Shown: positions 21,701 to 60,700, counted from the stretch's first letter. The stretch: 64,000 nucleotides of DNA from Euglena gracilis (GCA_039621445.1 CP154954.1:21402954-21466953); one strand, 5' to 3'. Notes: generated by a model from the letters alone, not told the origin. Numbers and translations are program-made.

Positions 21701-22075
21701 CAATGTGATTTGGCATCGTACCAGGCTTCTTGTGAAGTCAGATACCCCCCCCCAGTCTGGCAGGGCAGAACGGGAATCGGCCAAACAGCCAGGGGGGTAG
21801 ACCCCCCCACCACCCACTCTTCCCGTTTTTCTGGTGACACCAGTTTTTGGACCCCAAGAATTTTTCCCGGCGCCAAAGGCGCTGGGGGTGTTTTGGACCC
21901 ATTTTGGGACCCATTTTGGGACCCATGTAGGAGGTCCCCCCAAACCCCCATTTTTTCACACTTTCCAAAATTTCAGTTTCTCAACATTTTGATTTTGAGA
22001 GGATTTTGAAGCAAAAATGCCATTGAAAATCCAACAGAAACCCTGGACCTCTGGCCGGGACCCTGGCTTGGGGTC

Positions 22076-27298: not shown

Positions 27299-27489
27299 TC
27301 AGCCCACACCCCCCAGCTATATATGTGCCTCCCCACTGCACACACAGACCTTCCCCCATCTTTCAAAATCAGGGGGAAAGCCTGTCTTTGAGCAGCCCTA
27401 TGGCAGGGCCAGAGGTGACCCCAGTGATGGGGCAGCCAGGGAGGACCCCAGTGATGGGGCCAGGGGGAAGGACCCCAGTGATGGGGCCT

Positions 27490-28815
27490 GTGGAATCCCC
27501 AGACACATTACACCCAGGGGTGCCCCCCTACAGAGCCCTGCAGGCCAGCATTCCCCATTGGGTCAAGGCAGGAGCCAGCACAGAGGTATTAAACTTAATA
27601 AGGGAAGGGGTCAGGGCAGATCTTCCCGTCCCCCCTCAGATGTCCTTAAAAGTTCCCTTCAAAACTCCCCAAGAAATAATGACTGCCCAGAAAATTCTGA
27701 GGGAATACGAATGTGCAGGGGCAACCAGGCAAATCACCCCAGAGGAGGCAAAACATTTTGTCCCTTATTTTATCATTTCCAAAGAGGAAGGGGGAAAGAC
27801 AAAGGAAAGACTAATTTCAGATTGTCGACAGTTAAATCTCCATTTCACCCCCCAGAAGTTCAGATTGGAACACATGGGAAACATCTTCCCATATCTCAGA
27901 AAAGGTTGGTTCTGTGGAAAAATAGATCTGAAAGATGCTTATTTCCACTTAAAGCTGCACAGCAGCCTGGAAAAACATTTTTGCATGCAGGTGGGGGGGA
28001 AACGTGGCAATTTCAAGCTGCATGCTTTGGTATAAGCAGCCTGCCACAAAAGTTTATGACTCTAATGAGAGTCTGGGAAAGGAAATGGAGAAAGGAAGGA
28101 AAGGTAGTTTTCATCTACCTGGACGACATTTTGCTGTTAGCCCCCAGCAAAAAGACAGCAGCCCAACATTTGGCAGAAATGAAAAAAGATCTTTTACTGG
28201 CAGGTTTCAGAATAAACCTCCCCAAATCATGTCTGGAACCAACACAAGAAATAAAGCATTTGGGCCAGTGGATCAATTTGAAAAAAGGCCAACTGGAAAT
28301 TCCACAGGAAAAACTGAAATCCTTAAGAAAGGAATTAGGAAAGGTGCTGACAGCACAAAAAATGAGCTGCAGAAAACTCAGCTCTATTGTAGGGCAAGTA
28401 AGAAGCTATTTAGTTTCAATGCCTTTTCTCAGAATTCTGACAGATCAACTTTGCAAAATGGTGGATTTGCACACCAAGTGGGGTTGGGACCACACCTTGA
28501 CCATTCCCCAAGGGGTCAAAGATCAAATTGTGGAGTTAAAGGCATTTTTGCAGCCAGGTGTGGGCAGAGCATTTCAATCCCAGGCCTCTCAGGAACTCTT
28601 CTCAGACAGACAGCAGCACCTGGCAATGGGGGGGGCTGGACAAAGATTCAGGCCAAAAGGTGCAGGATTTTTGGAGGGACCTGCATGTCCTTCACATCAA
28701 TCAAAAAGAATTGCAGGCTGCAGTGGAAACTGTAAAATCTTTGGCCAAACCAAAGCAAACGATTGTGCTTCATGTGGACAGTCAGGTGGCTGTCAGTTAT
28801 TTAACAAAATGGGGA
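27490..28815 (+). pseudogene. DIRS reverse transcriptase / RNase H (frameshifted near 27995 and 28605)
   Basis: PYFIISK...RLISDCRQLN, DLKDAYFH, CFGISSLP, YLDD, HLG, HIN.KEL across ORFs 27118..28035, 26541..28967 and 28558..28923. Confidence 0.9.
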
Positions 28816-28920
28816 GGGGGGTCCTATTTTTGGATTTTTGCTCGATCGGCTCAGGGGGGGTCTTATTTTTGGGGGTGGTCTTATTTTTGGGGGGGGTCTT
28901 ATTTTGGGGGGGGGTTACCA
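28816..28920. repeat. GGGGGTCTTATTTTTGG repeat at the left breakpoint of the split DIRS
   Basis: Its reverse complement, CCAAAAATAAGACCCCC, is repeated at 46985-47060 near the other breakpoint. Confidence 0.7.
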
Positions 28921-29089
28921 TAGGGCTTAATGCACCTGTTTTGCCTATCAGGTATTCTCCATGTTGATGTGGTTGGTTGACATACCATAGGGGGGCCTCT
29001 GTGGGTCCCCCCCTTGATTGAATGATCGGAAATTGAAAAATATTCATTGGAGGGGTTCTTGCCCCTCCCTCCAAAAGGACCACTGTGGG

Positions 29090-29728
29090 TGTGGGCGGCG
29101 GCGGCCTGAGCGCATGCGCACACAAAGTAGCGGAACCCTCCGCTACTACCTGACCACCCCCTTTCTGCATTTGCCTTCCGCAGGCTCCCTTGTTTCCATG
29201 GATTCAATCTGATTTGTGCATTGGAATTCAAGTTTTCAAGTTCAATTGTTCAATTCAATCAAATACAAAGATTTCAAAGAAACCAAAGGAAACTGCCAAA
29301 GGAGAAATTACCTTCAAGGAGATCAAAGAAAACCTCAAGGAATTGGCCTACCAGGAGCGCCCCAAGGCAATTTCAAAGGTACTTGCTGGATTTGGCTGGG
29401 CTAAGTGGCTATAAGGGTGGGAAGCACCCCCTGAAAACCCCTAGCACCCAGGCTTTTCCGCCCCCCCTCTGTCCCCCCTCAATTTCCCCCCCTGCGAGGG
29501 CCCACCTAAGCGGCTCCGCAGACCCCCAGAGGCATCGCAGGAGGCCCCCCCCTCCACTCCGCCGCCGGGAATACTAAAAAATGGATCCCAACCCATTCCA
29601 AGCACCCACGGAGCTTCCCAGGGCCTCCGTGGGGGCTGAGCCCACCCGCGCACCCCCCCTCGCCGGATCCGTGACCCGGGACCCACCCTGCCGGAACCCC
29701 AGCGAGACCGGGACCCCCCCTGGGAAAC
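29090..29728 (+). repeat. G1 5' LTR
   Basis: Starts TGTGGGCGGCGG; direct repeat of 43199-43838 with only a few differences. Confidence 0.95.
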
Positions 29729-32700
29729 TGGTAGCAGAGGCTTACGACCCTACCCCACACAACAACCCATTCCTCGCGGCCCACTCTGAGGTGAACCTTC
29801 AGATCACCGGCCGAGGCCCAGCACTCGGCGACCCCACCCCAGCGATGCCCGCAATCCCCTACGGGGGCCCCCCATCACATCTCCGTGGTAGCCCCCACGG
29901 GGATGCCCAATGCACAGCCCTAGCCCTGCTGTCCCCAAGTACAAATGATTTTGATCTCGATAGCCCTCGGGATCGAACCCCCACCCCACGGAAAGGAAAG
30001 TCAACCGGAAATCCCCTTTTCCCCCCGTTCCCATCGCTCGATGAAGCCCCATCAGTGCTGCCTCCACCCTTCTCCCCCACCGACTCCGACCCAAACCATC
30101 CCTCCATCTTCTCCATCCGTCCCCCACCCTCCTCCTCATACACCCCACATCCCCCATCCTTCAGCCCTCATCCCCCATCCTACTCCTCCCCGACATCCGA
30201 CGTCCCGGACCCAACCGACGGACCGCAGCCCCCCCAAGGGAGCCGAGACATGGGGCTGCGGACCCCGTTCTCCTCTGGGGCCACTCCCCGGCCCCAGAAG
30301 GTCCCGAGACTCTCCCCAGAGGAAGGGGGAGCAGAGGAGACGGAGCAGGAGCAGTGGGAGGAACAACGGTGGGAACCATGGGGGTCTGAAGGAGGATGGT
30401 GGCCTACTGAGGGTGACTACAAGCAGGACGAAGTGTTCAACGACATCAAGGCGACGGCGGCACAACAACAACAAGACATCGAGACAGTCAAACGACAAAT
30501 CACCGCATGCGACACCGCAGTCAATCTCGTGCGTGAGCAAGCAACCCGTGCGTATGACGTTTCGATGCGATGCGCGGCAGAGACTACAACGCTGCACGAA
30601 GCGGCGAGCGCCGCGCAAACCGCGATCACACAGCACGAGGTTCGCTTCGCGATGGTGGAACGAGATGTCCAAGGGTTGAAGGAGCAGATCAAGACCGAAG
30701 CGGCTTCATCGTCCTCCAAAGGTGCAACCGTCGACGCCGCGACAATCCACACTATCAGCAAACACGATGCGCGAATCACCGTCGTCGAAAGCGAGGTTCA
30801 AATGGTGAAGGAGCAGATCAAGATGGAGACAACAACGCGAAACAGCGACATCCGGTCCCTAGTGGAAATGATGCGGCGCGAACACGAGCAACAAGCAGCA
30901 AAAGGATCACCAAAACCGCAACAACCTATCCAGAACCCGGAGATGGAGGTGGCAATGAACAGAATGACAGTGCGGATCCAAGAAATCGAACAATCGAAAG
31001 ACCGACTGAAACGGGCGACGGTGGAGGAAGTGACGGTCATCAAGAAGGAGGTGGAGGACATGAAACAAGCACAGCAGACACAGGTGGCGGTGATGGCGAA
31101 GGAGATCCAGGAGATGAAGCAAAAACAACAGACATCGCAACCCCAACAACCGACCACATCCGACACTCTCATCCAGGATCTGATCTTCAAGGTGCAGGCC
31201 CTCGAGCAGAACAACAAGCAGTTCAAACGCGAGACGACGGAGTACATCCGGAAGCTCGAGATCCAGGTGCACGACTTCCACCACCTTGGGGCCAGGGTAC
31301 AAGCCCTGGAGACCTCCATGGCCCGATCCAAAGATGAGAAGGACAGAGACCTTCTCCGGCTGAGCAAGAAGGTCGAGGTGGCGGACGAAGCACTGGCAAG
31401 GGCCATGGAGCGGGTGGAGAACAAGATGCACGAGGAGATCAAACGACTTCAACTTCCACAACAACCACTCCAATCAACGGAAGAGGTGGAGGACGGCATC
31501 CGACAGCTGCGGGAGAGAGTGCTCCATGGAGAGGGAGCGTTCTCCAAGGCCATCAAGGAGACAAAGACACAGCTCAGGGAAATACAGAGGGACATCCAGC
31601 TAATCCGGCAACAATCACGCCCCAATGTGAGCAGCAGTGAACAGATGGAGCGAGAAGTGCAAGATCTGGCGAGACAAGTCGCACGGCTACAGCTCAGCAC
31701 AACAACGCCCATCCAGGAACCACACATCCCCCGTGAAGAAGTCCGTCAACGTGCAGAGGTCCACACATTCCCGTCCCAACCGTACCCAGAAATACAAGCA
31801 CGACAACAATCTTCGGTTGCGGTGCGACCGGAGCTCAGGTTGGCAAGAAAGAGCACGCGATCAATGGTGCAAAGTGAAGCAGTGACATCAATCCCAGTAC
31901 AAGCAGTGATGCCAATGACGCAAGTGACACAGCCACCCAGGAGCACAACCGGAACGGCGGTGCGGGGGGGGGAGGTGACCATCGCCCCAGTGCAAGCACA
32001 CACCGTCAGTCCACAACTCCAACTCCTACCCCCACAACTCCTGGAGTCCATCAGCGGCAGACATCCCGGAAGGTTCAGCGGGATTGCAGAGGACTGGCCA
32101 ATGTGGAGAAGAAAGTGGATTCCGTTTCTACGAGAAACGGAAGGGCTGATGCCAGCAATGACCGATGCACAGCGATTGGCGTTGCTGCGAAGTGCACTCG
32201 ACGAGGCCGGGGCTCTCCTGGTGGACCAGGAGCTGGAAGCCAATCCGGACCTCGGGTACGAAGAGTACTGGGCGCGCCTCGACCTGGAGTTCGGGGCGGA
32301 AGACAAGGAGGTCCTCCGCCGCAAGCTCCACCGGCTGAAGATGGCGCATGCGGGCAAGCCAACAGAGAAGTCGTGGCGTGAGCTCTACGCACAGATGATG
32401 ACCCTGGGTGGGCAACTTGGCGATGTCAGTGATGCAGAACTGAGTCGCCTGTTGATGAATGCGATCCCAAGGGATCCGTGGCGAAGGAAGCTGGCGATGG
32501 AGGAGGACAAAAGGACAGAGAGGGGCACCTTGGTGCTCGATGGGCTGCCAATCGATGTGGCCACAGAGGAGGTGGAGAACATGGTGCTGGCGGAGACCGG
32601 GCTGAGACCACTTGCCGTGCGACGGTTCGGCAAGCGAGTGAAGGTGACGCCGCAAGGGGAAGAGCATCGGCATGCCATCAAAATGCTCTATGACCGGCAG

Positions 32701-33369
32701 CGGCTCCAAGGCGGGAGCGTTGTCAAGGTCTCCCCGGACAATGCGGAGTTGGGGCCAAAAGAAATCAACGAGCTGATGACTCGTTGGCTCCGAACGGAGC
32801 AGCGGATCGCCAACGCGCCCGAGCCGCAGCAAATCTCCGGCCCCCAAAGGCAAGACCATCGGCCACAGCCGCGGTGGCACCGGGAAGTGGATGCAGAGTG
32901 GGATGGTGCGGAAGAAGAAGAGGAAGAAGCTGTCCGGCAAGTGGGCAAGGGAAACAAACGGCAAGATAAGAGGCCCCCGACACCTCCAAAGGTGTCTGAG
33001 AAGAAGGAGGAGCAACCGACAAGCACGGTGCAACCCGGACCACAGCCCACCCAAAGTGCACCGTCACCGCCACCGGCGGTGAAGGGAGGAGATCGACAAC
33101 CAGAGTGGTCATCATCGGGACAGTGGCAGAATGCCCCGTACCAAGGCGGAGCGTCGTGGAACAACTCATGGGATGCCAAAGGCAAGGGAAAAGGCAACCC
33201 ACAATGGTCAAAGGGAGGAGATGGCAAAGGTGGTGGACAAGACAAGGGTGGCAAAGGCAAAGGCGATGAGAAAGGCAAGAGCAAAGGAAAGGGAGATGGA
33301 AAAGGCAAAGGAGGAAAAGACGGCGGCCGAGGGAGGAGTGTCGCCGCAGTGGAGGAGTGGGAGGAGTGA
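29581..33369 (+). CDS. gag: G1 Gag (Pro-rich N-terminus, long coiled coil, capsid-like region, RRM-like domain, GK-rich tail)
   Basis: 1262-aa ORF; the HPGRFSG..EDWP.WRRKW block is conserved with G2. ATG 29581 lies inside the LTR; the first in-frame ATG after the PBS is 29845. Confidence 0.88.
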   Translation: MDPNPFQAPTELPRASVGAEPTRAPPLAGSVTRDPPCRNPSETGTPPGKLVAEAYDPTPHNNPFLAAHSEVNLQITGRGPALGDPTPAMPAIPYGGPPSHLRGSPHGDAQCTALALLSPSTNDFDLDSPRDRTPTPRKGKSTGNPLFPPFPSLDEAPSVLPPPFSPTDSDPNHPSIFSIRPPPSSSYTPHPPSFSPHPPSYSSPTSDVPDPTDGPQPPQGSRDMGLRTPFSSGATPRPQKVPRLSPEEGGAEETEQEQWEEQRWEPWGSEGGWWPTEGDYKQDEVFNDIKATAAQQQQDIETVKRQITACDTAVNLVREQATRAYDVSMRCAAETTTLHEAASAAQTAITQHEVRFAMVERDVQGLKEQIKTEAASSSSKGATVDAATIHTISKHDARITVVESEVQMVKEQIKMETTTRNSDIRSLVEMMRREHEQQAAKGSPKPQQPIQNPEMEVAMNRMTVRIQEIEQSKDRLKRATVEEVTVIKKEVEDMKQAQQTQVAVMAKEIQEMKQKQQTSQPQQPTTSDTLIQDLIFKVQALEQNNKQFKRETTEYIRKLEIQVHDFHHLGARVQALETSMARSKDEKDRDLLRLSKKVEVADEALARAMERVENKMHEEIKRLQLPQQPLQSTEEVEDGIRQLRERVLHGEGAFSKAIKETKTQLREIQRDIQLIRQQSRPNVSSSEQMEREVQDLARQVARLQLSTTTPIQEPHIPREEVRQRAEVHTFPSQPYPEIQARQQSSVAVRPELRLARKSTRSMVQSEAVTSIPVQAVMPMTQVTQPPRSTTGTAVRGGEVTIAPVQAHTVSPQLQLLPPQLLESISGRHPGRFSGIAEDWPMWRRKWIPFLRETEGLMPAMTDAQRLALLRSALDEAGALLVDQELEANPDLGYEEYWARLDLEFGAEDKEVLRRKLHRLKMAHAGKPTEKSWRELYAQMMTLGGQLGDVSDAELSRLLMNAIPRDPWRRKLAMEEDKRTERGTLVLDGLPIDVATEEVENMVLAETGLRPLAVRRFGKRVKVTPQGEEHRHAIKMLYDRQRLQGGSVVKVSPDNAELGPKEINELMTRWLRTEQRIANAPEPQQISGPQRQDHRPQPRWHREVDAEWDGAEEEEEEAVRQVGKGNKRQDKRPPTPPKVSEKKEEQPTSTVQPGPQPTQSAPSPPPAVKGGDRQPEWSSSGQWQNAPYQGGASWNNSWDAKGKGKGNPQWSKGGDGKGGGQDKGGKGKGDEKGKSKGKGDGKGKGGKDGGRGRSVAAVEEWEE
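29729..29740 (+). promoter_or_regulatory. Primer-binding site, tRNA-iMet type
   Basis: TGGTAGCAGAGG directly after the LTR, complementary to the 3' end of eukaryotic initiator tRNA-Met. Confidence 0.85.
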
Positions 33370-33421
33370 AGTGTCCGCCCAGGCCTCAGGGGGGTAGGCC
33401 TGGGCAGGCAGTCAAAACCCC
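33367..33421 (+). promoter_or_regulatory. Candidate gag-pol recoding signal (TGA, 7-nt spacer, H-type pseudoknot)
   Basis: Stem GCCCAGGCCT/AGGCCTGGGC; loop GGGGT can pair with downstream ACCCC; covarying equivalent in G2. Confidence 0.65.
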
Positions 33422-33879
33422 GAGCCGGAGACCGGCAAGAGGAAGTGCACGAGGTGAGAACCGTGCAGGTGTGCTCCACCACCCTGTCCAGGCATCGAGA
33501 GGAGGAAGGATGGCAGGTGGTGGAGAAAAAGAAAAGAAACCGCAAGCCAAGACAATCACCTCCGATGACACAACCCGACAAGGATCAAGGCGCAAAGGGA
33601 AGGAAGGAAGAAGGGGAGAGAAATCTATGCCAAGGAAATGGCAAAGATCAACAACGAAGAACAACAACCACTCCAAGGGAAAAGGAAGTAAGAAGGAAAC
33701 GACAACCTCATCGCGACAACCACCTCAAGGGTCAACATCTACCACACAACACCCTCCCCGCGACACCAACCGGCATCCACAACAAGAAAAGCAACACCTA
33801 CCCCAAAGAAAGCAACATCCACTGCGCGACACCGACCGGCATCCACCACAAGAAGAGCACCCAAGAAGCCTAACAGCCA

Positions 33880-35170
33880 TGCAACAGCCCGACAACAAGC
33901 GACACGAAACCCGGCAGCCACCCCACGAGCATCATCCGCCACAAGAACCGCCATCTCCACCCCAACTTCCCCATCATCAACAGCTCCCACCAGAACGCTC
34001 CTCTAACCCGCTGCAGCCACCCCACGAGCATCATCCGCCACAAGAACCGCCATCTCCACCCCAGCATCTCCACCATCGACATCTCCCACCAGAACGGACA
34101 TGCAACCCGCAGCAGCCACCCCACGAGCGTCATCATCCACAAGAACCGTCATCCCCACCCCAACATCCCCTCCAACGACATCTCCCACCAGAACGGACAT
34201 CCGAACCCCGACCCCGACTGCAGCCGCCGCCACTAGAACCGACACCATCATCCAAGCTGCATCCTCCCCAACGACCACTCCCACCAGAACCTTCATCTTC
34301 ACCGCAACAACTACCTCGACAGCAGCTACCCCACAAACCCGCATCATCATCAGAGCGACATCTACTCCAACGTCAACATCCACCAGAACCTTCATCTTCT
34401 CCACAGCATCCACCATCGCCGCTGCCGCCACGAGAACCGACTCCATCATCTAAGCCACATCCACACCAACCACAACTCCCACGAGAACCTTCATCCACAT
34501 CACGACATCCGTCATCGCAGCCGCTGCCACGAGAACTGTCTTCATCTTTGCAGCGACATCCACCCCAACATTATCGTCCACCAGAACCTTCATCTTCTTC
34601 GCGACACCCACCTTCGCGGCTCCCACCACGAGAAACCGTCTCCGTCATCTCAGCGACACCCCACACCAACTTCGTCGCCCACAGGAACCGTTATCTCCTC
34701 CGCAACATCCACAATCGCTACAACCGCCACGAGAACCGATTTCGTCATCTCAACAGCATCCACATCAACCTCAACTCCCACCAGGACCGTCATCTGCATC
34801 ACCACGACAGCTGCCTCTGGAACCGTCATCAAAGCGACATCCTCATCAACGATATCACCCACGGGAACCGTCATCTACTTCGCGACATCCACTGCCACTA
34901 CAGCTGCCACTCGAACCGCCATCATCATCACAAGGAAACACCCCGCTACCTCTCCCACAAGAACCTTCATCTTCGTCTCAGCATTCACCTCAACAACAAC
35001 CTCCACTGGAACCGACTTCTACATCGCTGCATCCCCACCAACAACACCAACCACCAAGCGATTCCCAGCATCAACCACAAACGCCTCAAGAAGGATCAAG
35101 ACAACATCTACAACAAGAAACACCGCATCCACATCCAACATCCAGCAACATCACCCAAGCCACATCCACA
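33880..35170 (+). repeat. Low-complexity repetitive linker (Ser/Thr-rich in the DNMT frame)
   Basis: Repeated CCACCAGAACC-TCATC units; in frame with the DNMT apart from one TAA at 34451 (CAA in a sister repeat). Confidence 0.6.
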
Positions 35171-35173
35171 TCC

Positions 35174-38100
35174 GTGCTTCCAGGCTCGGTGACGCCAGAA
35201 GCAAAAGAAGAGAAGCACCAGCAGAGCCGCGGACGCGAGCTCTGGGCACTGGACCTGTTCTCCGGGACGGGCAGTGTCCGCCGGGCCCTCGAGGCAATGG
35301 GCTACCATGTCGTGAGTGTCGACTGGGACTCCCGGTGGCACCTTGATGTGGTGGCGGACATCCGGCGATGGGAGTACTGGCAGCAGTATTCCCCTGGTGA
35401 CTTCGATCTGGTGGCAGCATCCCCACCATGCACCGAGTACTCGTCGGCAATGACGACAAGGCCGAGGCGGTTGAGGGAAGCAGATGCGGTGGTGAGGAAG
35501 ACAAGGGAGATCATCCAGTACCTCGCTCCGGCGAAGTGGTGGATCGAGAATCCCCGGCACGGGCTGCTCCGCAGGAGGCGAGTAGTCCGAGACCTGGCCT
35601 TCGTGGACCTCGACTACTGCATGTTCGAAGACTTCGGCTACCGGAAGCCCACCCGGTTCTGGTTACCGAAGGAGATGGCCAGGGATCTCACCAACGTGTT
35701 GTGCGATGGCCGATGCAAAAGCTCGGTGCAAGGGGACAAAGGAAGACGGCGCCACCGGTTCCAGCTGGGAGGCAGGTGCCCCCACAGAGTGTCACGAGAG
35801 GAGGCGTACAGAATCCCAAGCGGCGTGGTGGAGTACCTGTGCCAAGGCACAGGACCACAAGCAGCAACCGAAGCAGAAGGAGCAGTGTCCAACAGCAAAG
35901 TGCAAGAGGTGACCATCAAGCCGTGGCACGTAAAGCCGGCCCGCTTTCGAGTGGGCAGGATGCAAAGGAGAGGAGGCGGATGCCAGCTGCTGCTGGAAGT
36001 GACCGTGGAAGCCAATGGTGAGTGCTACCAAGCAAAAGCGCTCATCGACACCGGAGCCCAGACGTCTCTCTGCCGGAGGGACCTGCTGCCAGAAGCCTGC
36101 TTCACGCAGTCCAGCAAGCCGCTGCTGCTCAAGACAGTGAGTGGCGAAGAGCTCAACGGAGGGAAGAACGAGGCCACCCTCACACTCTCCTTCGAGGCAA
36201 GGAGTGAAGAAGGCGTGCCAGTGGGCAGCCAGTGGAGCAGCACCGTCACCGCACACGACGGGGACATCGGCTGCGACCTCATCCTCGGATATCCGTGGTT
36301 GAAGGTCAATCGCCTCGACGTGCAGCCGTGGAGGGATGCACTCCAGCTGCATGATCCGCCACGGTGGGTGCTGTGGGCGCAAGAGGACAGCACCGTCCAA
36401 GGACAAGGAAGATCGACAGCAGCAGTGGTCACCCAGCAAGAGCCGCAACCACACCCAGCATCCTCAACCCAACATCCCCTCCAACAACCCCTGTCATCAA
36501 CGGCAACACAACATCAAGAGGAAGAAGAGTGTCTGTGGGAAGAAGAAGAAGATGTGGAGGAGCAAATGCTGGCATTGGTGCAGAAGATGCGGATGTGCAT
36601 TCCCGGAGAGATCCATGAAGCCGAGGAGGATGAAGGTGCGTCGGATGAGGAGATCTCCGACAACGAGGCACTCCAGGAAGCAGCAAGGCACATCCTCCAA
36701 GTGCAGGGCGAGCAGGTGGAAATCAGAGGCGTGGTGCAGTCAGACGACGAGCATCCAGATCCACTGGCATCCAAGCTCCGGCAAGAAATCCTGGATGAAT
36801 ACGCAGGACGCGTCTTCCGGGAAAGAGTGTGGCCAAATCCCCCAGCAAGAGGGACGCACGGCAAGGCCGTGCTCAGGCTGAAGCCAGGTGCAGTGCCAGT
36901 GGTGGGCAGAGTGATCCACCTGAGAGGAGAAAGGCATGATGCCCTGAGGGAAATGGAGGTAGAGTGCCGGAAGGACGGCAAGCTGGAACCCGGGAGGGGA
37001 CCGTGGAGAGCAGCCGCCTTCCCAATAAAAAAAAAGCGGGAAGTGGAGACTGGTGTGCGATTACGCGCTCACCAACAAGCAGCTGCAGCCGGACAGCTAC
37101 CCGCTGCCCCTCACCGAGGAGATCGTGGCCGAGCAAGCAAGATGTGAGCTGTTCAGCACAGTGGACCTCCGGGATGCCTTCCATCAAGTCGCCCTTGACG
37201 CCGAGTCCCGGCCAATCACCAACATCCAAATGCCGGGCGGCCTGTGGCAGTGGACTGTGGTCCCACAAGGGATCAATGTGGGCCCGGCACTGCTGCAACG
37301 GGACATCGATGCGACGTGTGCCGGACTGCAAAGGCACTCAAGGCCGTACTTTGATGACATCATCATCTGCACCAAAAGAAAAGTCGGCCAATCGGAAGAA
37401 GACTTCCTGAAGGCCCATGCCGCAGATGTCCGGGAGACGCTGGCAGCGCTCGAGCGCGACAAGTGGGTCTCGGACCCCAAGAAGGTGAAGCTGTTCATGC
37501 GCCGAGTGGAGTTTGTCGGCCATGTGCTGGGAGGAGGAAGAAGGTCACCAGCCCCAGGGAAGCTGGCAGCTGTCCAGAAGTGGGAGCTGCCCAAGAACGT
37601 CTCCAGCCTCCGGGCATTTTTGGGGCTGTGCAATTATTACAGCGGATACGTGCGAATGTTCGCCGAATATGCGGCACCGCTGCAGGAAAAGCTGAAGTTG
37701 CCCCGGGAGCTCGCCAAAGCAGGCAGCAAACACCCGGTGACATGGACCAAGGAGGAAGAGAAGGCATTCGAGCGCCTGAAGCAGGCACTCGTGGCGGACC
37801 TCGAGCTGTACCACATGGACCCCACCAAGCCGTTTGTCCTTCGGACAGATGCATCGGACTATGCGGTGGGTGCGGCGCTGGAGCAGTTCCCACTGGTGGA
37901 AGGACTCCCGTCCCTCGCGGACATCAAGCCAGGTGCCTCCATCCCCGTGGCCTTCATGAGCCGCAAGCTCACCGATGGCCAACGGCAGAAGTGGGACACC
38001 AGGGACAAGGAGACGTATGCAATCGTCTCCGCCCTGGACAAGTGGGCGCCGTACATTCTGGACAACGAGGTGCTGGTGCTGACAGACCACAAGAGCCTAC

Positions 38101-40509
38101 AAGGGTGGTACAAAGAGCATGTCGCAGGAGTCGGCCCACAAGGCCGCCGAGCAAGGTGGCATGCAAAGCTCAACAACTTCCGGCTGGAAGTCATCCATGT
38201 GCCAGGCCAAGCAAACACCATCGGAGATGCGCTCTCAAGATGGGCATATCCCGCCAGCCAAGGCTTCAAGGACATCACCTGGCATGGCACCGATCAAGAC
38301 ACGAAAGAAATGCAAAAGCAAATCCAGAAGGAGAAGGAAGAGGAGAGATCGTGTCCAAAGGCCACTCACCCAATCGACACAGCCACCGAAGAAAAGCAAG
38401 TACAAGCACAAAACCACCGAGAACACCGAAGTGGCAGTGACCACCCGAGCACAGATGAAAAAGAACCAGGCAGCACCAACAGCCAAGGGGTCCACCGACA
38501 TGGAGACGCCAAGCCCAGCACATCAAGGCACAGCAAGACCCACCAGACCCACCAGAGAAGCCAGCAGCATGCCAAAGAAAAACGAAAAGCCAGCAGTCCC
38601 ACAGACCAGCAGCAAATCAGCCAAGGACTCAGTGGAGGACGAGGAGGACGTGGTGGAAATCACAGCACCCACAGCAGAAACACCCAAGGAAAAGGATGCC
38701 ACAACATCAACCGCCGACCCAACAACCTCATCACCCCATCAACATCCCGACACCTCTATCATGCAGCCGCAACCTCCGTCTTCCAGCATCCCAGCACCCT
38801 TACCATCCTCATCATCACCCGACATCCCAACATCCTCCCCAACCACATCTGCCCCTGATCATCCCATCACCGACCCCGCAGACGCCGAGGAGGACATCGA
38901 CATCTACACCATGGACTGGGGACCGCACTACGAGAAGTGCCCCAGATGGCAAACCGTGTGGCACGACACCAAGATCGGAGACCCGTGGCCCAAGGGCTAC
39001 CGGGTTGAACACAAGAGGCTCCTGAAGGATGGGGTCTGGTGCGTGCCAACGGGCCTGGTGGGCAAGGTCCTCAGAGCACAGCATGCCCAAACGGGCCATT
39101 GGGCAGGCGAGATGCTGATGAAAGAGGCTCACCGTTTCTTCCAGTTCGCCGACGAGGAGGAGGCAAAGAAGCTGGCCGAGAGGATGCAGAAAATCTGCAG
39201 CTACTGCCAAGCAGTGGAACACCCCCACCAGCCGCTGCACCTGAAGGTGACACCGACACCGGTGCCGCCCCACATCATGACCAGCGTCTGCATCGACCTG
39301 TTTGTGATGCCCGAGGTGGAGTTCGAGGGCAAGCTGTTCAATGTCGTCGCGGGCTGCGTCGACAGACACAGCGGCTGGGTGGTGGCCACGGCACACCACA
39401 CGAGGGGGTTGACGGCAGCCAAGGTCGCCAAGGCGATGTACCGCAAGTGGTGGTCGCCCCATGGGATCCCAAGCGTGATCACCTCCGACAGGGGGCCCCA
39501 CTTCGCAGGAGCGTGGTGGCGAACCATGTGTGCCCTGCAAGGCGTGCGGCATGCTTACTCCCAAGCACACCACCACCCCGCCAACGGCAGAGCAGAGCAG
39601 ATGGGGGCACAGCTGCAGAAGCAGCTGCGGCACATCCACGAGGAGAAAGGAATTCCGTGGGTGGAAGCACTCCCCATCGCTGTCCAACGCCTCAACGACA
39701 AAGAAGGACCAAGCGGGTTGTCACCATATGAAGTGCTCTATGGAAGGCACCGGCCGTATGCTGGTGTCCCCTACGAGCCACCCACCAAGGCCGAAGATGC
39801 AGTCAGCTTCTTCGAGCGGCAGAAGCTGGTGGACAAGAAAGTCGCAGACACCGTGAACCAGCTGCATCAAAAAAAGACCGAGCAGTTGAACAAGCGACGC
39901 AAGGAGCTGCCACCACTGCAAGTGGGCAGCAAGGCGTGGTACCTGCGGCCAAGGGGCAGGCCAGGGGAGAAGCTGGAGAGCTACTGGCTGGGCCCATGCC
40001 GCGTGATGGAGAGGAGGAGTGAGCACGGCTACGTGGTGGAACTGCAGGAAGGAAGGATGCAAGAAGCACACCGGTGCCAGCTGAAGGCGTACACAGAGGG
40101 CGATGAAGAGCTGGGATCACCGGTGAAGCTATTCCACTTCAAGCAGGCCCGGTCAGATCCTCCAACCGGGATCGATGAGTGGAACGTCGAAAAAGTGGTG
40201 ACCCACCGAAGAACGCCAGGAGGAGAGTTGGAGTTCAAGGTGCAGTGGGAAGGTTCCACCGAACTCACCTGGGAACCACTGCACCATTTCTTCCACAGCT
40301 ACAGTCAGCCCATCGTTGATTACTTCCAGAAGAAGAACCTGAAGGAGGATGTCATGGCTCATCTGGCCAAACACCCAACAGAGGTGTCCAGGGTGTGGCT
40401 GTCAGCAGTAGAAGGAGGACCGAGGCAAGACAAGAAGTGGCCACTTGAGTGGGAAGAGCCCCCCACTGAGTGGACATGGGAGGAGAAGGAGGCGAACCAG
40501 CAGCTGTGA
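35174..40509 (+). CDS. pol: G1 Pol: DNMT, aspartic protease, RT, RNase H, integrase, chromodomain (frameshifts ~37030 and ~38400)
   Basis: PR LIDTGA (~36047); RT CDY..N, DLRDAFHQ, YFDD; RH TDASD...KE...TDH...DALSR; IN H-H-C-C, IDLF, TSDRG, NGRAE; chromodomain EWNVEKVVTHR...FKVQWEG...TWEP (~40177-40330). Confidence 0.95.
35240..35845 (+). CDS. C5-cytosine DNA methyltransferase domain in G1 Pol
   Basis: Motif I LDLFSGTGS, motif II VSVD, motif IV ASPPCTEYS (catalytic PC), motif VI IENP, motif VIII-like YRKPTRFW, C-terminal AYRIP. Confidence 0.92.
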
Positions 40510-42722: not shown

Positions 42723-43184
42723 TCTGCCACACGGAGGCCTGCCCCCAGCTGGATTGTCCGCCGCGGGCAGACGATCGAAGGGCTGAGAGCTCCAACCAGG
42801 CTTCCGTGGAGGCAAGCGGCGCGGCCCAGGCCGAGCGAGGCACGCCCCCCCCCGGCCAAGGGCGAGCCCAAGCACGCCCCCCAGGCCCGCCGGGGAGCGC
42901 ACATGCCTTGCACACCCAACCCGAGCCCACAGAGCCCCGCCCGCAGCCGGTTCCACCGCTGCGGCGGGAAGCCACACAGCGCTCCGCGCCCGCGGCTCTG
43001 TGGAGGGACGGCGGAGCCAAAGCCGACCCCCAGGCCGAAGTTCCCTCAAAACGGCCCCATCATTGCTTCCCTCAGTTATAACGTTCCTTTCCTTTTTTTG
43101 TACATAGTGCACTCGATGCCTGGTGCGCACCGCTCCCGCCCCCCACCGCCGGGGTAAGCCAAAGGCAGGCGAGGCCGGCGCCTC

Positions 43185-43198
43185 GGTAGGAAGGGGAG
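43185..43198 (+). promoter_or_regulatory. Polypurine tract of G1
   Basis: GGTAGGAAGGGGAG abutting the 3' LTR. Confidence 0.85.
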
Positions 43199-43838
43199 TG
43201 TGGGCGGCGGCGGCCTGAGCGCATGCGCACACAAAGTAGCGGAACCCTCCGCTACTACCTGACCACCCCCTTTCTGCATTTGCCTTCCGCAGGCTCCCTT
43301 GTTTCCATGGATTCAATCTGATTTGTGCATTGGAATTCAAGTTTTCAAGTTCAATTGTTCAATTCAATCAAATACAAAGATTTCAAAGAAACCAAAGGAA
43401 ACTGCCAAAGGAGAAATTACCTTCAAGGAGATCAAAGAAAACCTCAAGGAATTGGCCTACCAGGAGCGCCCCAAGGCAATTTCAAAGGTACTTGCTGGAT
43501 TTGGCTGGGCTAAGTGGCTATAAGGGTGGGAAGCACCCCCTGAAAACCCCTAGCACCCAGGCTTTTCCGCCCCCCCCTCTGTCCCCCCTCAATTTCCCCC
43601 CCTGCGAGGGCCCACCTAAGCGGCTCCGCAGACCCCCAGAGGCATCGCAGGAGGCACCCCCCTCCACTCCGCCGCCGGGAATACTAAAAAATGGATCCCA
43701 ACCCATTCCAAGCACCCACGGAGCTTCCCAGGGCCTCCGTGGGGGCTGAGCCCACCCGCGCACCCCCCCTCGCCGGATCCGTGACCCGGGACCCACCCTG
43801 CCGGAACCCCAGCGAGACCGGGGCCCCCCCTGGGAAAC
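43199..43838 (+). repeat. G1 3' LTR
   Basis: Direct repeat of 29090-29728. Confidence 0.95.
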
Positions 43839-57000: not shown

Positions 57001-57721
57001 GCTGGAGGTCCTGCCGATGGACACGACGGTGGAGGAGGTGAAGGAGATGATCAAGCAAGAGACCACGGTGGCCCCCGCCTCGGTGCGGAAGGCGGGGCGC
57101 CGCTTCGTGGTGGTGCCAGTGGGCGACGAGCACCGCACCCTGGTGAAGGCCGTGTATGACCGCCAGCGGCTCGAGGGCGGCAGCATCGTCATGGTGACGG
57201 CCGACTCGTGCGATCTACCGGCGAAGGACATCCACAACCTCATGGTGAGATGGCTGCGGATGGAGGCGAAGATGGCCCCCGAGAAGGAGAAGGAGATCCC
57301 GGAGAAGCGGCCGGTACCACGGTGGCAGCGGGACGTGGAGGTCGACGACACCACCGAGGAGCCGTACATCCAGGAGGTGGAGAAGACGAATGTGCCGCCG
57401 AAGAAGGAGAAGGAAGCGCAGCAACCACGCCCGCCGACGCCTCCGGTGCCCGCGCCCCAAGGCAAAGGACAAGGCTAAGGGGGACGTGGGTACCAGGAGC
57501 AGTGGTCATCGAGCCCATGGACGAGTGAAGAAGGAAAAGGAAAGGGTGGTGGGTACCAAGGCGAGCAGTGGACATCGAATGCCCCAAGACAAGATGAAGG
57601 CAAAGGAAAAGGCAGGGCGAAAGGTGGAGCCAAAGGAAATCAAGGAAAAGGAAAGTCCAAGGGCAAAGGCAAGGACGGCAAGAGCAACGTCTCGGCCGTC
57701 CAAGAGCAGTATCATGAGTGA
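54097..57721 (+). pseudogene. gag: G2 gag (several frameshifts and stops)
   Basis: ORF pieces 54097..56106, 56268..57041 and 56618..57478 align with G1 Gag (HPGRFSG, EDKEVLRR, YDRQRLEGGS, PRWQRDV). Confidence 0.85.
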
Positions 57722-60700
57722 CGGGGCCGCCCAGGCCCCAGGGATGGGGGTTGGGCCGGCCGTCAAATCCCAACGCCAGCGTGAGCGTGCGGGCAATCAC
57801 CCAAGAGCCCCGCACGCCCCCCAGACCCAGCAAGCTCCAAATATCCCAAGGAGGGGAGAGACCATGCCCGGAAGCACACGGTCAAGGCGGGGGCCATCAG
57901 ATTTCGACAAACAACTACTGGGCCGTGCTACAGAACAAGTCCCGTCGTTCTGAGCAACCGTCTGCGGCGCGTCCGGTCTCGTCTGCGCAGTCATCGCCCC
58001 CTGCCAAGCCAGCAGCGTTCGTGTCATCGTCTACGCAGCATCGTGTCACCGCGACGCCCCCAGCCTGGCAGCAGAAAGAGCGAGCACCGCGCCAGTCCGC
58101 ACCAAGCCGGACGACGCTGCCCCCGCCATCAGCAGCGCCGTCAGCGGCACCACGCTCCGCACCCGCAGTAACCAGCGCCCCGTTCCCCCCGCAGAGCGCA
58201 CCGTCCTCCCGGTCGGCACCGAAGCCGGCCGCATCGTCACCACCAACCTCATCGCCGAAGAGGTGGGCCCTGGACCTGTTCTCCGGAACGGGTTCGGTGA
58301 AGCGGGCGCTGGAGAACCTCGGCTACTCCGTCGTCTCGGTGGACTCCGACCCGCGGTTGAAGGCGGACAAGACGGTGGACGTGCGGCGCTGGCGGTACTG
58401 GGATGAGTACTGGCCCGGCGACTTCGAGCTGGTGGCCGCCTCGCCGCCGTGCACCGAGTACTCCAGAGCGATTACGACCAGGAGGCGGTGGCTGCGGAAG
58501 GCCGACTTCCTGGTCCGCAAGACGAAGGAGATCATCGCCTACCTGCGGCCGTCCCTGTGGTGGCTGAAGAATCCCCGCTACGGGAAACTCCGCCACCGCA
58601 AGGTCTTCGAGGACATGCAGTACGTCGATGTGGACTACTGCATGTTCGAGGCGTGGAGCTATCGCAAGCCCACACGCTTCTGGATCGCGGACTCCATGGC
58701 CCCCATGCAGGACATCGTGTGCGACGGCCAGTGCGAGAACATCGTGGAGGAGCAAGATGGACGGCGACATCACCGACGGCAGCTGGGTGGGGCATCCCAG
58801 CAGCGCGGCACCCGAAAGCAGGCATATCGCATTCCCGAAGGTGTCGTCCGATACCTGCGTGAGCGCACCCCACCAACCCGCCAAGAAGCCGTGCCACCCA
58901 GTGCGATACCGCCGTCGCCGTCACCCGCACCCGCGTCCGCACCCACACCACCAAGCAGGACGGCGCTGCCCCCGCAAGCAGCGGCGCTGTCCCGAGCTCC
59001 ACGCCAACGACCGCCATCGTGCACCCGCCAAGCATCGTGCACCCCCGCCGAGCCGCCAAACGATGCACCCACCGAGTCCGTCGCCACCGCCGCCGACGAG
59101 CCCCACCCCCGCGGAAGGTCCACAAGTCCGTCCGTGGCAGTATCGCCCCAGCCGGCCCTTCCAGGTGGGCCGCATGGAGAGGCGGGGCGGCAGCTACCAG
59201 CTCATGCTGGATGTGGTAGTCGAGATCGACGGCCGGGAGGAGAAGGCGGAGGCCCTCATCGACACGGGGGCGCAGACATCGCTTATCCGTCGGGACTTGT
59301 TCCCGAACGGATGTTTCCGCCGCAGCGAGCGACTGCTGCTGCTGCGGACCGTGACCGGCGACCTGCTGGCGGGCGGAAGCAACGAGGCGGACGTCCTCCT
59401 GTGTTCAACGCGAGGAGTGAAGGAGAGGGGAGTGCAGGAATGAAGAGGTGGCACAGCCAGATCACCGTCCATGACGGTGATATAGGGTGTGACCTGATTC
59501 TGGGTTACCCCTGGCCGAAGGAGCACAGGCTGGATGTGCAACCCTGGCGGGATGCACTCCAGCTCCACGACGAACCCCGATGGGTCATCACCGGCACCGA
59601 AGCAAGCAAGATCGCAGCGCTGAGCACACGCACCCACGCGACCGTCCGAGCCCGCAGCCCGTCGCCGTTGTCCCGCACGCCGCCCGAAGTGGAGGAGGAG
59701 ATGGAGGCGGAGGTGAAGAAGATGAGGCTCACCGTCGGGGTCAACGGCCCCGACGGAGACGAGGAGGAGGAGACCCTGGACGCCGAGGAGGAGGCAATGG
59801 TGGCCAAGGTGCTGATCGAAGCGGCCAAGGAGGCGAAGGAAGTTCGTGGGGTGGTCACGGCCGACGCGGAGGAGCAGCACCCGCTGGCCGTCCAGCTCCG
59901 CGCAGAGATCCTCAAGGAGTTCGAGGGCCGCGTCTTCTGCGACCGCGTCCACCCCGATCCACCGCCCCGAGGCCAGCATGGGATGGCGGTGCTGCGCCTC
60001 AAGCCAAACGCCCAACCGGTGATGGGGAGGGTAATCCACCTGAAGGGCGAACGGCTGGAGGCGCTGCGGGAGATGGAGGAGGAGTGTCGCCGCGACCGGA
60101 AGGTGGAGCCGGGGCGCGGCCCGTGGCGGGCGGCCGTCTTCCCGATTCGGAAGAAGAACGGGAAGTGGAGGATGGTGTGTGACTACGTGGTGACGAACCT
60201 GCAGATCATGGCGGACAGCTACCCCTTGCCCTTGACGGAGGAGACCGTGGCGGAGCAGGCGAAGTGTACCCTCTTCAGCACCATCGACTTGCGGGACGCG
60301 TTCCACCAGGTGGCCTTGGCGGAAGAGAGCCGACCGGTGACGAACGTCAAGCTGCCGGGTGGGCTGTGGCAGTGGCGTGTGGTCCCGCAGGGGATTAACG
60401 TCCGGCCCGCCCTCCTGCAGCGGGACATCGACGCCACCTGCGCGGCGGTGAAGGCGCACTTCCGCCCGTACTTCGACGACATCATCGTCAGTACGCGGCA
60501 GGGAGCGGAGGAGACGGACGAGGAGTTCTACAAGAAGCACGCCCGAGACGTCCGTGAGACGTTGCTGGCCTTGGAGAAGGACAGATGGGTCAGCGACAGC
60601 CGCAAGGTCAAGCTCTTCATGAGGCAGGTCGAGTTCGTGGGGCATGCCCTGGGGCACGGCAGGAGGGCGCCTGCCCCAGGCGGACTGGGGGCGGTGCAGC

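Follow-up and report, generated by a model that had tools for sequence, protein, structure and literature searches.

The stretch of DNA analyzed here (hereafter the window) comprises 64,000 nt of the Euglena gracilis genome (CP154954.1:21402954-21466953) and harbors two long terminal repeat (LTR) elements that carry a DNA methyltransferase (DNMT), referred to as G1 and G2; their features are listed in Table 1, and all coordinates are those of the window. The LTRs of G1 are made up of matching repeats at 29089-29388/43198-43497 (100%) and 29454-29728/43564-43838 (98%). Its DNMT is followed, in further reading frames, by protease, reverse transcriptase (RT), RNase H, integrase and chromodomain sequences (RVP, RVT_1, RT_RNaseH, rve and Chromo), and the LTRs and these domains stand in the order expected for a Ty3/gypsy chromodomain element. 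The PF00145 scores (18.6 and 20.9 bits) fall slightly short of the cut-off value, 22. Conserved among G1, G2 and L001 are the motif LDLFSGTGS and a PPC motif; L001 and L002 are the two least damaged environmental (metagenome) relatives of these elements, and the G1 DNMT is 72% identical to that of L001 across 451 residues. Pfam scans with an E-value limit of 0.01 detected no adenine-methyltransferase (DAM) family. G1 and G2 are Ty3/gypsy-type (chromodomain) LTR retrotransposons with a probable DNMT, residing in a Euglena-type genome.

LTR retrotransposons with a DNMT and a chromodomain have been described in E. gracilis as EpiLTR/DAM-LTR (Fernandez-Moreno et al., bioRxiv 10.64898/2026.05.21.726589); G1 and G2, in which both domains are found, probably belong to this kind. 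The main text of that preprint never uses the terms gag, readthrough, read-through, frameshift, stop codon or pseudoknot.

Table 1. Features of the G1 and G2 elements around the gag-pol junction (window coordinates).
Feature	Position	Strand	Remarks
G1 5′ LTR	29089..29728	+	Direct repeats shared with 43198..43838
G1 gag frame, stop to stop	29578..33366 (33369 with TGA)	+	Window frame 1; 1263 codons
G1 gag stop TGA	33367..33369	+	Preceded by GAG (Glu)
G1 spacer, 7 nt	33370..33376	+	AGTGTCC in G1; AGGGGCC or CGGGGCC in relatives
G1 post-stop coding sequence, gag frame	33370..33620	+	Conserved peptide ...EV.EVR...GWQVV...
G1 conserved hairpin	33377..33405	+	5′ arm 33377-33385, loop, 3′ arm 33397-33405
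C-run	33418..33421	+	Could pair with loop G-run (pseudoknot) or spacer G-run; overlaps conserved Pro codon
Two extra bases in G1	33621..33622	+	Missing from most family copies; put G1 out of frame
99-nt repeat array between stop and DNMT of G1	33914..35028	+	33-residue, Pro/Ser-rich; spacing 99, 99, 99, 200
G1 C5 DNA methyltransferase domain	35249..35551	+	Window frame 2; PF00145 18.6 bits (cut-off 22)
G1 3′ LTR	43198..43838	+	Direct repeats shared with 29089..29728
G2 gag stop TGA	57719..57721	+	Window frame 2; G2-family gag P0009 ends at the same ...QYHE
G2 hairpin	57729..57756	+	Same 5′ arm; 3′ arm 1 base shorter, T for C; pol goes on in frame 1

The gag Frame and Its Stop Codon

The best VIA fold matches of a model of the gag core (31990-32904; pLDDT 64.7) were the C-terminal domains of retroelement capsids, namely those of Copia (Z 10.9, rmsd 2.3, 90 residues aligned), PEG10 (10.1), dArc2 (9.0), MOAP1 (8.9), Ty1 (8.8) and MLV (8.5), values that are not decisive for helical folds, where Z is below about 13, in a model of pLDDT 64.7. 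The same model also matches an RRM-like domain over residues 178-250, and searches with the gag core gave no Foldseek match at E <= 0.001 and no Pfam match. The protein collection yielded 12 gag homologues; of the five that reach the C-terminus, four (P0004, P0006, P0008, and P0009) end at the Glu that precedes the TGA, and the fifth (P0005) passes through the junction in another frame. At the DNA level, the TGA occupies the same alignment column in all four sequences (G1, G2, L001, and L002), and a DNA contig from run X1, which differs from G1 at 16 positions in all, has no difference at the stop.

The Reading Frame across the Junction

In L001, the gag frame runs for 797 codons, from the C-terminus of gag through the DNMT to the DTG motif of the protease, with one stop, while the other two frames contain 21 and 12 stops; the corresponding frame of L002 extends over 749 codons and also has one stop, against 22 and 17 in the other frames. 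Location of pol in the −1 or +1 frame, which the preliminary description had named as evidence against readthrough, was found in neither relative; both have pol in the gag frame, an outcome in favor of the original proposal.

G1 and G2 themselves are defective, frame-broken copies, and production of Pol through readthrough is impossible from either. The G1 gag frame is open to 33873, as originally described; however, beyond 33621 it is not the coding frame of the family owing to two extra nucleotides. The variant that leaves out these 2 nt at 33621 accounts for a depth of 38828.7 of 45883.9 (85%) in DNA run X13 and is also found in the sole X1 contig spanning the site, so that most of the depth of the G1 family restores the frame: without the 2 nt, the post-stop frame of G1 joins a 640-codon open frame (33270..35192). 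In a tblastn search, the L001 post-stop protein matched 33376-33537 in frame 1. The repeat array of G1 is read in window frame 0 and then, past a break near 34640-34665, in frame 2; the repeat spacing and the frame that carries the repeat peptide suggest that this second frame break lies near 34650. The frame of G2 is broken elsewhere too, near 56950 in gag and also within pol.

Spacer, Hairpin and Downstream C-Run

The stop, spacer and stem initially described for both elements were confirmed. The G1 TGA is followed by a 7-nt spacer and a perfect 10-bp stem (33377-33386/33396-33405), the tenth pair of which (33386-33396) is confined to G1, and the common stem is 9 bp, GCCCAGGCC/GGCCTGGGC. The TGA of G2 is followed by a 7-nt spacer that starts with CGG, a 5′ arm that starts at 57729, an imperfect 3′ arm that is short by 1 nt relative to those of G1, L001 and L002, and ATCCC at 57767-57771. 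The suggestion that G2 has lost one base of the 3′ arm fits both the alignment and the other frame breaks in its gag and pol. The spacer is 7 nt long in all four sequences and the stem 9 bp in three, where it can be read either as 9 perfect pairs or as 11-12 bp with bulges; the loops of L001 and L002 differ by a single indel of 3 nt, and the frame is thus preserved. The leaky UGA-CGG context that had been invoked is not general, as the triplet after the TGA is CGG in L002 and G2, AGG in L001 and AGT in G1 (i.e., the next base is C in two sequences and A in two). Some bases are private to G1: nearly all of the depth in the DNA runs has G instead of T at 33372, 33374 and 33395, C instead of T at 33386, and A instead of G at 33393.

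The 59-nt junction of G1 folds at −28.7 kcal/mol (z −2.36), with 5 of 200 shuffles as stable, and the G2 junction gave a z of −2.43 (4 of 200 shuffles as stable); folded alone, the hairpins of L001 and L002 reach −24.8 kcal/mol (z −3.06) and −23.3 kcal/mol (z −2.39), respectively. A 22-nt junction motif occurs at two sites in the window, those of G1 and G2 (expected 0.02). The junction motif was also found in four metagenome contigs, two of which are the true relatives L001 and L002 and two are chance matches; three matches in viral contigs were likewise attributed to chance, and there was none in genome contigs.

Conservation and Selection at the Junction

Conservation around the junction is highest in the block made up of the TGA, the 7-nt spacer and the 9-bp stem, and mean pairwise identity is 0.77-0.88 over 33353-33392, as compared with about 0.3-0.5 in the flanking sequence. 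At the junction, synonymous differences among identical codons numbered 1/14, 3/14 and 3/16 (binomial P 1e-4, 2e-3, and 0.047), while the same measure elsewhere gave 196/313, 34/59 and 23/55 in gag (0.42-0.63) and 136/307 in the DNMT-protease (DNMT-PR) region. From this comparison, selection at the nucleotide level evidently acts on the stop, its distance from the stem and the stem itself. The post-stop peptide is likewise under selection, with a dN/dS of 0.21-0.43 over 32-88 post-stop codons, all upstream of any in-frame ATG; the first such ATG is located at codon +61 to +125 after the stop, and its position is not conserved.

Homology searches with the post-stop protein (queries G1 33370-33870, only about half of which is the true coding frame, and L001 residues 1-200) returned nothing beyond near-identical L001 fragments, and a search of representatives gave two matches, both L001-like. 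The Gag and DNMT-PR proteins had no relatives in viral contigs, and an alignment of five gag sequences had none in prokaryote genomes.

Covariation and the Proposed Pseudoknot

The preliminary description regarded the junction as a covarying pseudoknot, in which the loop pairing GGGGT:ACCCC of G1 was replaced by GGGAT:ATCCC in G2 through a compensatory change. Covariation was examined in the alignment of the four sequences, which represent related lineages, over 13 pairs comprising stem 1 and the proposed stem 2. None of the 13 pairs changed on both sides; 7 of the 9 stem-1 pairs are invariant, and in stem 2 none of the 4 pairs shows a double change, with 68.8% of the cells pairing column-wise. 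The two loop pairings stand in different registers of the alignment, and GGGGT:ACCCC is private to G1, being built on G1-only bases. Because no compensatory change was seen, the four sequences provide no covariation, and this part of the original proposal is not supported.

All four sequences retain a run of G in the loop and, 11-13 nt past the stem, a run of C (3 to 5 C, with 3 in G2). The particular pairing proposed for the pseudoknot is not kept, whereas a G-run:C-run pairing of 3-4 bp is; as a stem 2, it would measure only 3-5 bp, with four G:C pairs in three sequences and GGG plus two A-U pairs in G2, in a shifting register. The spacer offers the C-run an alternative partner, and both RNAfold and RNAalifold pair the C-run with this G-rich segment rather than with the loop. 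A putative pseudoknot between the loop G-run and the C-run would be an additional short pairing. The case for the stem consists of its invariance and of synonymous-site conservation, which another function at the RNA or DNA level would fit equally well.

A Proposed Model of UGA Readthrough

We consider it moderately probable that the UGA is read through under stimulation by the hairpin, which would yield a Gag-DNMT-Pol fusion. In working copies, Gag and a DNMT-protease-RT-integrase polyprotein would be encoded in one frame with a single UGA between them. The majority of ribosomes would terminate at the UGA and release Gag, and a minority would decode it by a near-cognate tRNA and continue into the fusion. 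The hairpin starts 7 nt past the UGA and would therefore be located at the mRNA entrance of a ribosome with the UGA in its A site, where the GC-rich hairpin and the conserved spacer might act as stimulators of readthrough; pairing of the loop G-run with the downstream C-run may add a pseudoknot. Readthrough, its stimulation by the hairpin and the residue inserted at the UGA are inferred.

The depth of RNA runs X21 and X24 is zero over 33318-33419. RNA reads pile up at 33216-33317, where they match a Gly/Lys-rich repeat in part, 859 of 865 X21 reads being less than 90% alike; this pile was rejected as expression of G1, as all of the reads lie only partly on the stretch and come from other transcripts.

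Comparison with Known Recoding Systems

The gag-pol junction of murine leukemia virus (MuLV) consists of a UAG stop, an 8-nt spacer and a compact pseudoknot (PMC3159437). As in the Euglena elements, gag and pol share one frame split by one stop, the short spacer (8 nt, as compared with 7 nt here) is G-rich and is followed by a GC-rich structure, and, according to the consulted part of that report, nucleotides of the spacer and structure are conserved in both systems (PMC3159437). The differences are that the stop is UGA here instead of UAG, that a true pseudoknot is needed in MuLV whereas stem 2 is putative here, that the host is a euglenid, that the DNMT lies ahead of the protease, and that there is no sequence or Rfam similarity. 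Sites with UGA-CGG or UGA-CUA and a 3′ stem-loop have been described in alphaviruses, tobra-, peclu-, furo- and pomoviruses, and coltiviruses (Firth et al., 2011, PMC3159437). The Euglena-type junction resembles them in the UGA, the adjoining CGG (in L002 and G2), the stem that begins 7-8 nt further on and the synonymous-site conservation peak past the stop; however, the viral stems described in the consulted part are typically at least 12 bp and span about 100-140 nt, whereas the structure here is compact (about 30-50 nt), the UGA is followed by A in two of the four Euglena-type sequences, and no compensatory substitution occurs among the four. In Rfam 15, no family reached the gathering score in 29000-64000, and the junction, L001 and L002 gave sub-threshold, chance-level matches only.

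Among retrotransposons, a TGA in frame at the gag-pol boundary, in the conserved context GAA-TGA-CT, is found in the fission-yeast Ty3/gypsy elements Tj1, Tcry1 and Tosmo1-3, and the stop of Tj1 is reported to be essential for transposition (10.1101/2022.12.06.519325). They belong to the same superfamily as G1 and G2 and, as far as the accessible text goes, share with them an in-frame TGA after a Glu codon and conserved nucleotides around the stop. In contrast to the GAG-TGA-(A/C)GG and conserved stem found here, a 3′ hairpin is not mentioned in that text; the lineages are unrelated, and the Euglena elements carry methyltransferase domains. The Candida albicans Ty1/copia element Tca2 has a gag-UGA-pol arrangement with an 8-nt purine spacer and a predicted pseudoknot, and its junction alone produced no readthrough in Saccharomyces cerevisiae and contains a promoter (PMC2194720). 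The likeness in UGA, spacer and predicted structure calls for caution, since, in the part of the report consulted, this layout was insufficient for readthrough in a heterologous yeast.

Alternative Explanations

It is also conceivable, though unlikely, that Pol is translated separately, for instance from an RNA that gains the spliced leader 3′ of gag or by way of an internal promoter, and that the hairpin serves RNA stability after the gag stop, packaging or dimerization. Euglena trans-splices a leader onto its mRNAs, and outrons have been reported in the consulted part of the literature (PMC11170887); the Tca2 junction, with a promoter inside and no readthrough driven by it, would be a precedent (PMC2194720, likewise consulted in part). 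Separate translation, however, requires neither a common frame for gag and pol nor a fixed distance of 7 nt between stop and stem, and protein-level conservation (dN/dS 0.21-0.43) extends over the 60-124 codons that precede the first in-frame ATG past the stop. Past the stop, where RNA coverage was close to nil, the RNA reads showed neither joints nor loose ends.

Also unlikely is the explanation that the hairpin is a miniature nonconventional intron of Euglena, or a mimic of one, with 33377-33407 as the excised piece. Under the rule given for such introns in the consulted sections of two reports, 3 nt precede a CAG, a CTG is followed by 5 nt and a purine, and the ends are base-paired (PMC12501133, PMC11170887). 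The G1, L001 and L002 hairpins conform, with CAG 3 nt in, a paired CTG 5 nt before the end and G as the next base, while G2 has TTG instead of CTG; the arms CCAGG and CCTG equal the E. gracilis consensus at +3..+7 and −9..−6 (PMC11170887), and synthetic 50-bp introns following the rule were spliced (PMC12501133). The pieces measure 31, 31 and 28 nt, compared with minimum lengths of 36 nt (ss-invariant) and 30 nt (ss-variant) in the accessible part of the report (PMC11170887), a length at or below the shortest reported, the 28-nt piece falling short of it. The likeness consists in the paired CCAGG/CCTG at the distances of the rule and in the following purine.

The position and the frame of the hairpin argue against an intron. 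It lies downstream of the stop, which the piece does not contain, and excision therefore cannot bypass the stop; after excision the UGA would remain and pol would be shifted to the −1 frame, so that excision would be a switch to a Gag-only RNA rather than a route to Pol. The frame is continuous only when the piece is retained, and loss of the piece, whose 31 or 28 nt are each 1 mod 3, would disrupt a frame that is conserved together with the hairpin. None of 1160 DNA contigs shows a copy without the hairpin, which indicates that the RNA that is reverse-transcribed keeps it. CAG-centered stems make up about 3% (6/203) of the perfect 9-bp hairpins in the window that are not of low complexity, and a chance match is therefore not remote; a general excess of CAG-centered hairpins (6 vs about 0.5 per strand in Markov shuffles) was considered and rejected, as it reflects a general excess of inverted repeats (6/203).

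A combination of the two, in which the hairpin both stalls or tunes the ribosome at the UGA and is recognized by the nonconventional splicing machinery of Euglena, is a speculation to which we assign a low probability. If it were true, some transcripts would lose the 28-31 nt and have pol out of frame, the ratio of Gag to Gag-Pol would be set jointly by splicing and readthrough, and nonconventional introns could even originate from retrotransposon hairpins of this sort, or have decoys in them.

Programmed −1 frameshifting with the hairpin as stimulator is very improbable. A long downstream frame is indeed −1 relative to gag in both window copies (G1 33270..35192; G2 57718..60753), and a stem 7 nt downstream corresponds to the usual geometry of frameshifting; however, this relation arises from copy-specific indels (the 2 extra nt of G1, absent from 85% of the depth, and the 1-nt stem gap and other breaks of G2), and the −1 frame of G2 is closed by a TGA one codon ahead of the gag stop. 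No slippery heptamer is conserved at the junction, in agreement with the initial description. The frames of L001 and L002, in which pol is in frame 0 and the other frames contain 12-22 stops, and the DNA reads at 33621 led to its rejection.

The reading of the UGA as a selenocysteine or sense codon, with the stem resembling a selenocysteine redefinition element, has a negligible probability: its architecture alone (a stem shortly after a UGA) is suggestive, and it was rejected because no Rfam family, SECIS included, reached the gathering score in 29000-64000 and because L001 (797 codons) and L002 (749 codons) each contain one in-frame stop of any kind, which argues that UGA is not an ordinary sense codon here.

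Implications for Euglena Retrotransposons

If hairpin-stimulated readthrough of the UGA takes place, it would explain the ratio of Gag to enzymes in the methyltransferase-carrying retrotransposons of Euglena, a matter on which the preprint describing EpiLTR is silent in its main text as regards gag and recoding (10.64898/2026.05.21.726589), so that the present interpretation of the junction would fill this gap. A full-text literature search returned no title on readthrough in Euglena retrotransposons among the matches listed, and the junction would possibly be the first euglenid case of structure-assisted UGA readthrough. The cytosine methyltransferase would then first be made as a fusion to Gag, and could therefore be delivered inside the particle.

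The Two Elements and the Identity of gag

Two LTR elements with a probable cytosine methyltransferase (DNMT) domain, G1 and the diverged G2, occur in the window and are 74% identical around the junction of gag and pol; the positions that the preliminary description assigned to both junctions were all correct. The 99-nt repeats of G1 are absent from G2 and from L001, a metagenome relative, and the distance from the stop codon to DNMT is approximately 550–620 nt there versus approximately 1880 nt in G1.

Features of the two elements and their surroundings
Feature	Position	Description
G- and C-rich region	1–25000	Rich in long G-runs, C-runs and short dispersed repeats (e.g., 6996–7385, 11857–12247, 22068–22879)
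809-codon open frame	26538–28964	Reverse-transcriptase domain (RVT_1, E 5.7e-09), directly upstream of the G1 5′ LTR; probably another retroelement, adjoining or interrupted by G1
G1 LTR element	29089–43838	14.75 kb; LTRs 98–100% identical; after gag: 99-nt repeat array (Pro/Ser-rich), probable cytosine methyltransferase domain, protease, RT, RNase H, integrase, chromodomain
G1 gag-frame ORF	29578..33369	Long open frame
G1 gag stop TGA	33367–33369	Followed by a 7-nt spacer
G1 stem	33377–33386 / 33396–33405	Perfect, 10 bp
G1 99-nt repeats	33914–35028	About eleven, between gag stop and DNMT; unit of 33 residues, Pro/Ser/Gln-rich
G1 587-codon open frame	41318–43081	Between the integrase-chromodomain region and the 3′ LTR; no Pfam family found
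40-nt repeats	42311–42707	Eight, inside the 587-codon frame
G2	~54000 to window end	Same design as G1
G2 gag stop TGA	57719–57721	5′ arm of stem as in G1; 3′ arm shorter, imperfect

The label "gag" is based on its place within the element, on 12 homologues from a protein collection and on a modelled conserved core (31990–32904; pLDDT 64.7). The best structural matches of this core were retroelement capsid C-terminal domains (Copia, Z 10.9; PEG10, 10.1; dArc2, 9.0; Ty1, 8.8; MLV, 8.5), values that are suggestive but not decisive for a helical fold. The model also contains an RRM-like beta-alpha-beta domain at residues 178–250, with many RRM matches of Z 8–9, placed within or after the capsid-like helical domain. 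A Pfam search of gag found nothing and recognized no zinc knuckle. The database homologues have a long N-terminal region that is coiled-coil-like.

Frame of pol Relative to gag

Relative to gag, the long frame downstream is −1 in G1 (33270..35192) as well as in G2 (57718..60753), which at first seemed contrary to the proposal in the preliminary description that DNMT-Pol is reached by stop-codon readthrough. A scan of metagenome contigs for the junction motif, performed independently of the stop codon, returned four loci; two (L003 and L004) were chance matches in GC-rich sequence, and L001 and L002, both from a single metagenome, are true relatives. In L001 one frame of 797 codons, with a TGA as its sole stop, leads from the gag C-terminus to DNMT and the DTG motif of a protease; the frame of L002 has 749 codons, likewise with one stop, made up of 622 for gag, the TGA and 126 beyond it; the other frames of these loci contain 12–22 stops.

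When contigs from two DNA sequencing runs were aligned to positions 32400–33913, 2 nt of G1 at 33621 were found to be missing from most family copies (38828.7 of 45883.9 of the depth in run X13) and from the single spanning contig of run X1; without them, the post-stop frame of G1 connects to the open frame through the repeats. A second break probably lies near 34640–34665, judging from a repeat spacing of 200 rather than 198 and a repeat peptide that switches from frame 0 to frame 2. Further changes were observed from protease (frame 2) to RT (frame 0) and from RNase H (frame 0) to integrase (frame 1) (37029–38858, 38083–40509); from gag to integrase, G1 contains at least four breaks despite its near-identical LTRs. 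The break at 33621 is also present in approximately 15% of the family depth, suggesting that a subfamily with this defect has multiplied. G2 is decayed throughout, with gag split near 56950 and at least two changes of the pol frame, so its 1-nt hairpin gap is one indel among several. Taken together, the relatives, the G1 family and the decay of G2 point to an ancestral gag-UGA-pol layout in one frame, and each of G1 and G2 is a defective copy; the placement of pol in the gag frame, on which the readthrough proposal depended, thus held.

Conservation and Selection at the Junction

The 22-nt junction motif occurs at only two sites in the window, the junctions of G1 and G2, compared with an expectation of 0.02. 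In all four of G1, G2, L001 and L002, TGA follows GAG and the spacer is 7 nt long, and intact relatives differ by a single indel in the loop, 3 nt in length. The gag proteins P0004, P0006, P0008 and P0009 terminate at the junction Glu, and the homologue P0005 continues through the junction in another frame. Mean pairwise identity of the four sequences in 30-column windows peaks at 0.77–0.88 over 33353–33392, between flanks of approximately 0.3–0.5. Among codons for the same residue, synonymous differences number 1/14, 3/14 and 3/16 at the junction, compared with 196/313, 34/59 and 23/55 in gag and 136/307 in DNMT-PR (binomial P for the junction deficit, 1e-4, 2e-3 and 0.047). Over 32–88 codons 3′ of the structure, all before the first in-frame ATG (codon +61 to +125), dN/dS is 0.21–0.43, in small samples. 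These observations point to an element that works at the RNA level and is tied to the stop codon, and to translation of the sequence downstream of it.

Separate translation of pol, which we regard as unlikely, would not readily account for a frame common to gag and pol, an invariant spacing and a peptide that is conserved ahead of any ATG.

The Hairpin and the Proposed Pseudoknot

The junction hairpins fold modestly better than shuffled sequences (z −2.4), and shuffles performed equally well in 5 of 200 cases for G1 and 4 of 200 for G2. The preliminary description called the structure covarying; in the four-sequence alignment, none of the 13 pairs of stem 1 and the proposed stem 2 is changed on both sides, and in stem 1 seven of nine pairs are invariant, one changes from G-C to G-U and one is broken in G2. 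Nearly all of the depth in the DNA runs departs from G1 at 33372, 33374, 33386, 33393 and 33395, where the G1 letters account for less than 1% to approximately 2% of X13 depth. The majority form is that of L001, letter for letter, and loses both the tenth base pair and the claimed GGGGT:ACCCC pairing. Compared with the spanning X1 contig, G1 shows 16 differences in 1413 nt, five of them within the 24 nt of 33372–33395 (spacer, stem top and loop); this cluster may represent dead-copy decay, gene conversion or assembly error.

All four sequences retain a loop G-run and, 11–13 nt past the stem, a run of three to five C residues (three in G2). This C-run shares positions with a conserved Pro codon and shifts in register, CCCC occurs in 5–13% of 20-nt windows across these elements, and in the RNAfold and RNAalifold predictions the partner of the C-run is the G-rich spacer, not the loop. 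Since a ribosome on the stop codon would bury the spacer, a hypothetical pseudoknot is sterically possible. An Rfam search of positions 29000–64000 returned no family match at gathering score. The claims of a pseudoknot and of covariation were overstated.

Resemblance to Nonconventional Introns

The stem reads GC-CCAGG-CC ... GG-CCTG-GGCAG, followed by G. Nonconventional introns of Euglena are reported to carry 3 nt and then CAG, paired with CTG and then 5 nt, with a purine opening the next exon (PMC12501133), and the E. gracilis consensus is given as CCAGG at +3..+7 and CCTG at −9..−6 (PMC11170887). The hairpins of G1, L001 and L002 match this code exactly, and the would-be introns are 31, 31 and 28 nt long, respectively; the shortest such introns reported are 36 and 30 nt (PMC11170887). 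That the hairpin is such an intron, or a mimic of one, is nevertheless slightly less probable than separate translation. As a route to Pol, it is opposed by the position of the hairpin 3′ of the stop, by excision of 28 or 31 nt placing pol in −1, by a conserved frame that requires the hairpin to be kept, and by the absence of any hairpin-less contig among 1160 aligned DNA contigs. Moreover, 478 perfect 9-bp hairpins were counted in the window, mostly G-run/C-run pairs, and CAG-centred stems make up approximately 3% of those outside low-complexity sequence, so coincidence is not remote. Splicing and readthrough jointly setting the Gag to Gag-Pol ratio is a similarly doubtful prospect, a shade weaker again.

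Three more perfect 9-bp CAG/CTG-centred hairpins in G1 (30223–30263, 40240–40286 and 42927–43005; 41, 47 and 79 nt) also fit the outline of the code; the first two lie inside the gag frame and the frame 38083..40509, which are continuous without their removal.

Probable Recoding at the gag Stop Codon

The junction feature is real and conserved and most probably serves as a recoding signal. Frameshifting to −1 is very improbable, being contradicted by the frames of L001 and L002, and no slippery site for it was found at the junction; selenocysteine insertion at the UGA, for which there is no support, is the least probable reading. The reading of these sequences with the best support is programmed readthrough of the UGA, assisted by the hairpin, which we consider moderately probable.

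The RNA runs X21 and X24 have zero depth over 33318–33419. Positions 33216–33317 attract RNA-seq reads from two studies in the hundreds, as partial matches of less than 90% identity with loose ends extending into other Gly/Lys-rich sequence; these appear to derive from some unrelated, abundant transcript that contains a GKGKG-type repeat and not from expression of the element.

The closest precedents are MuLV, with a stop codon, an 8-nt spacer and a pseudoknot (PMC3159437), and UGA-CGG sites with a stem 7–8 nt downstream (Firth et al., 2011, PMC3159437). The fission-yeast elements Tj1, Tcry1 and Tosmo1-3, which share a superfamily with the Euglena elements, also belong here: they have a TGA in frame, with conserved sequence around it, and for Tj1 this stop is reported to be essential (10.1101/2022.12.06.519325). 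The main caution for readthrough is Tca2, which has the same predicted layout as the Euglena junction, but whose junction contains a promoter and by itself did not produce readthrough in yeast (PMC2194720). The words gag, readthrough, read-through, frameshift, stop codon and pseudoknot are absent from the main text of a 2026 preprint on DAM-LTR/EpiLTR elements (bioRxiv 10.64898/2026.05.21.726589). The likeness of the hairpin to the odd introns of its host is intriguing and testable, and the junction itself most probably represents a known kind of signal found in an under-studied host.
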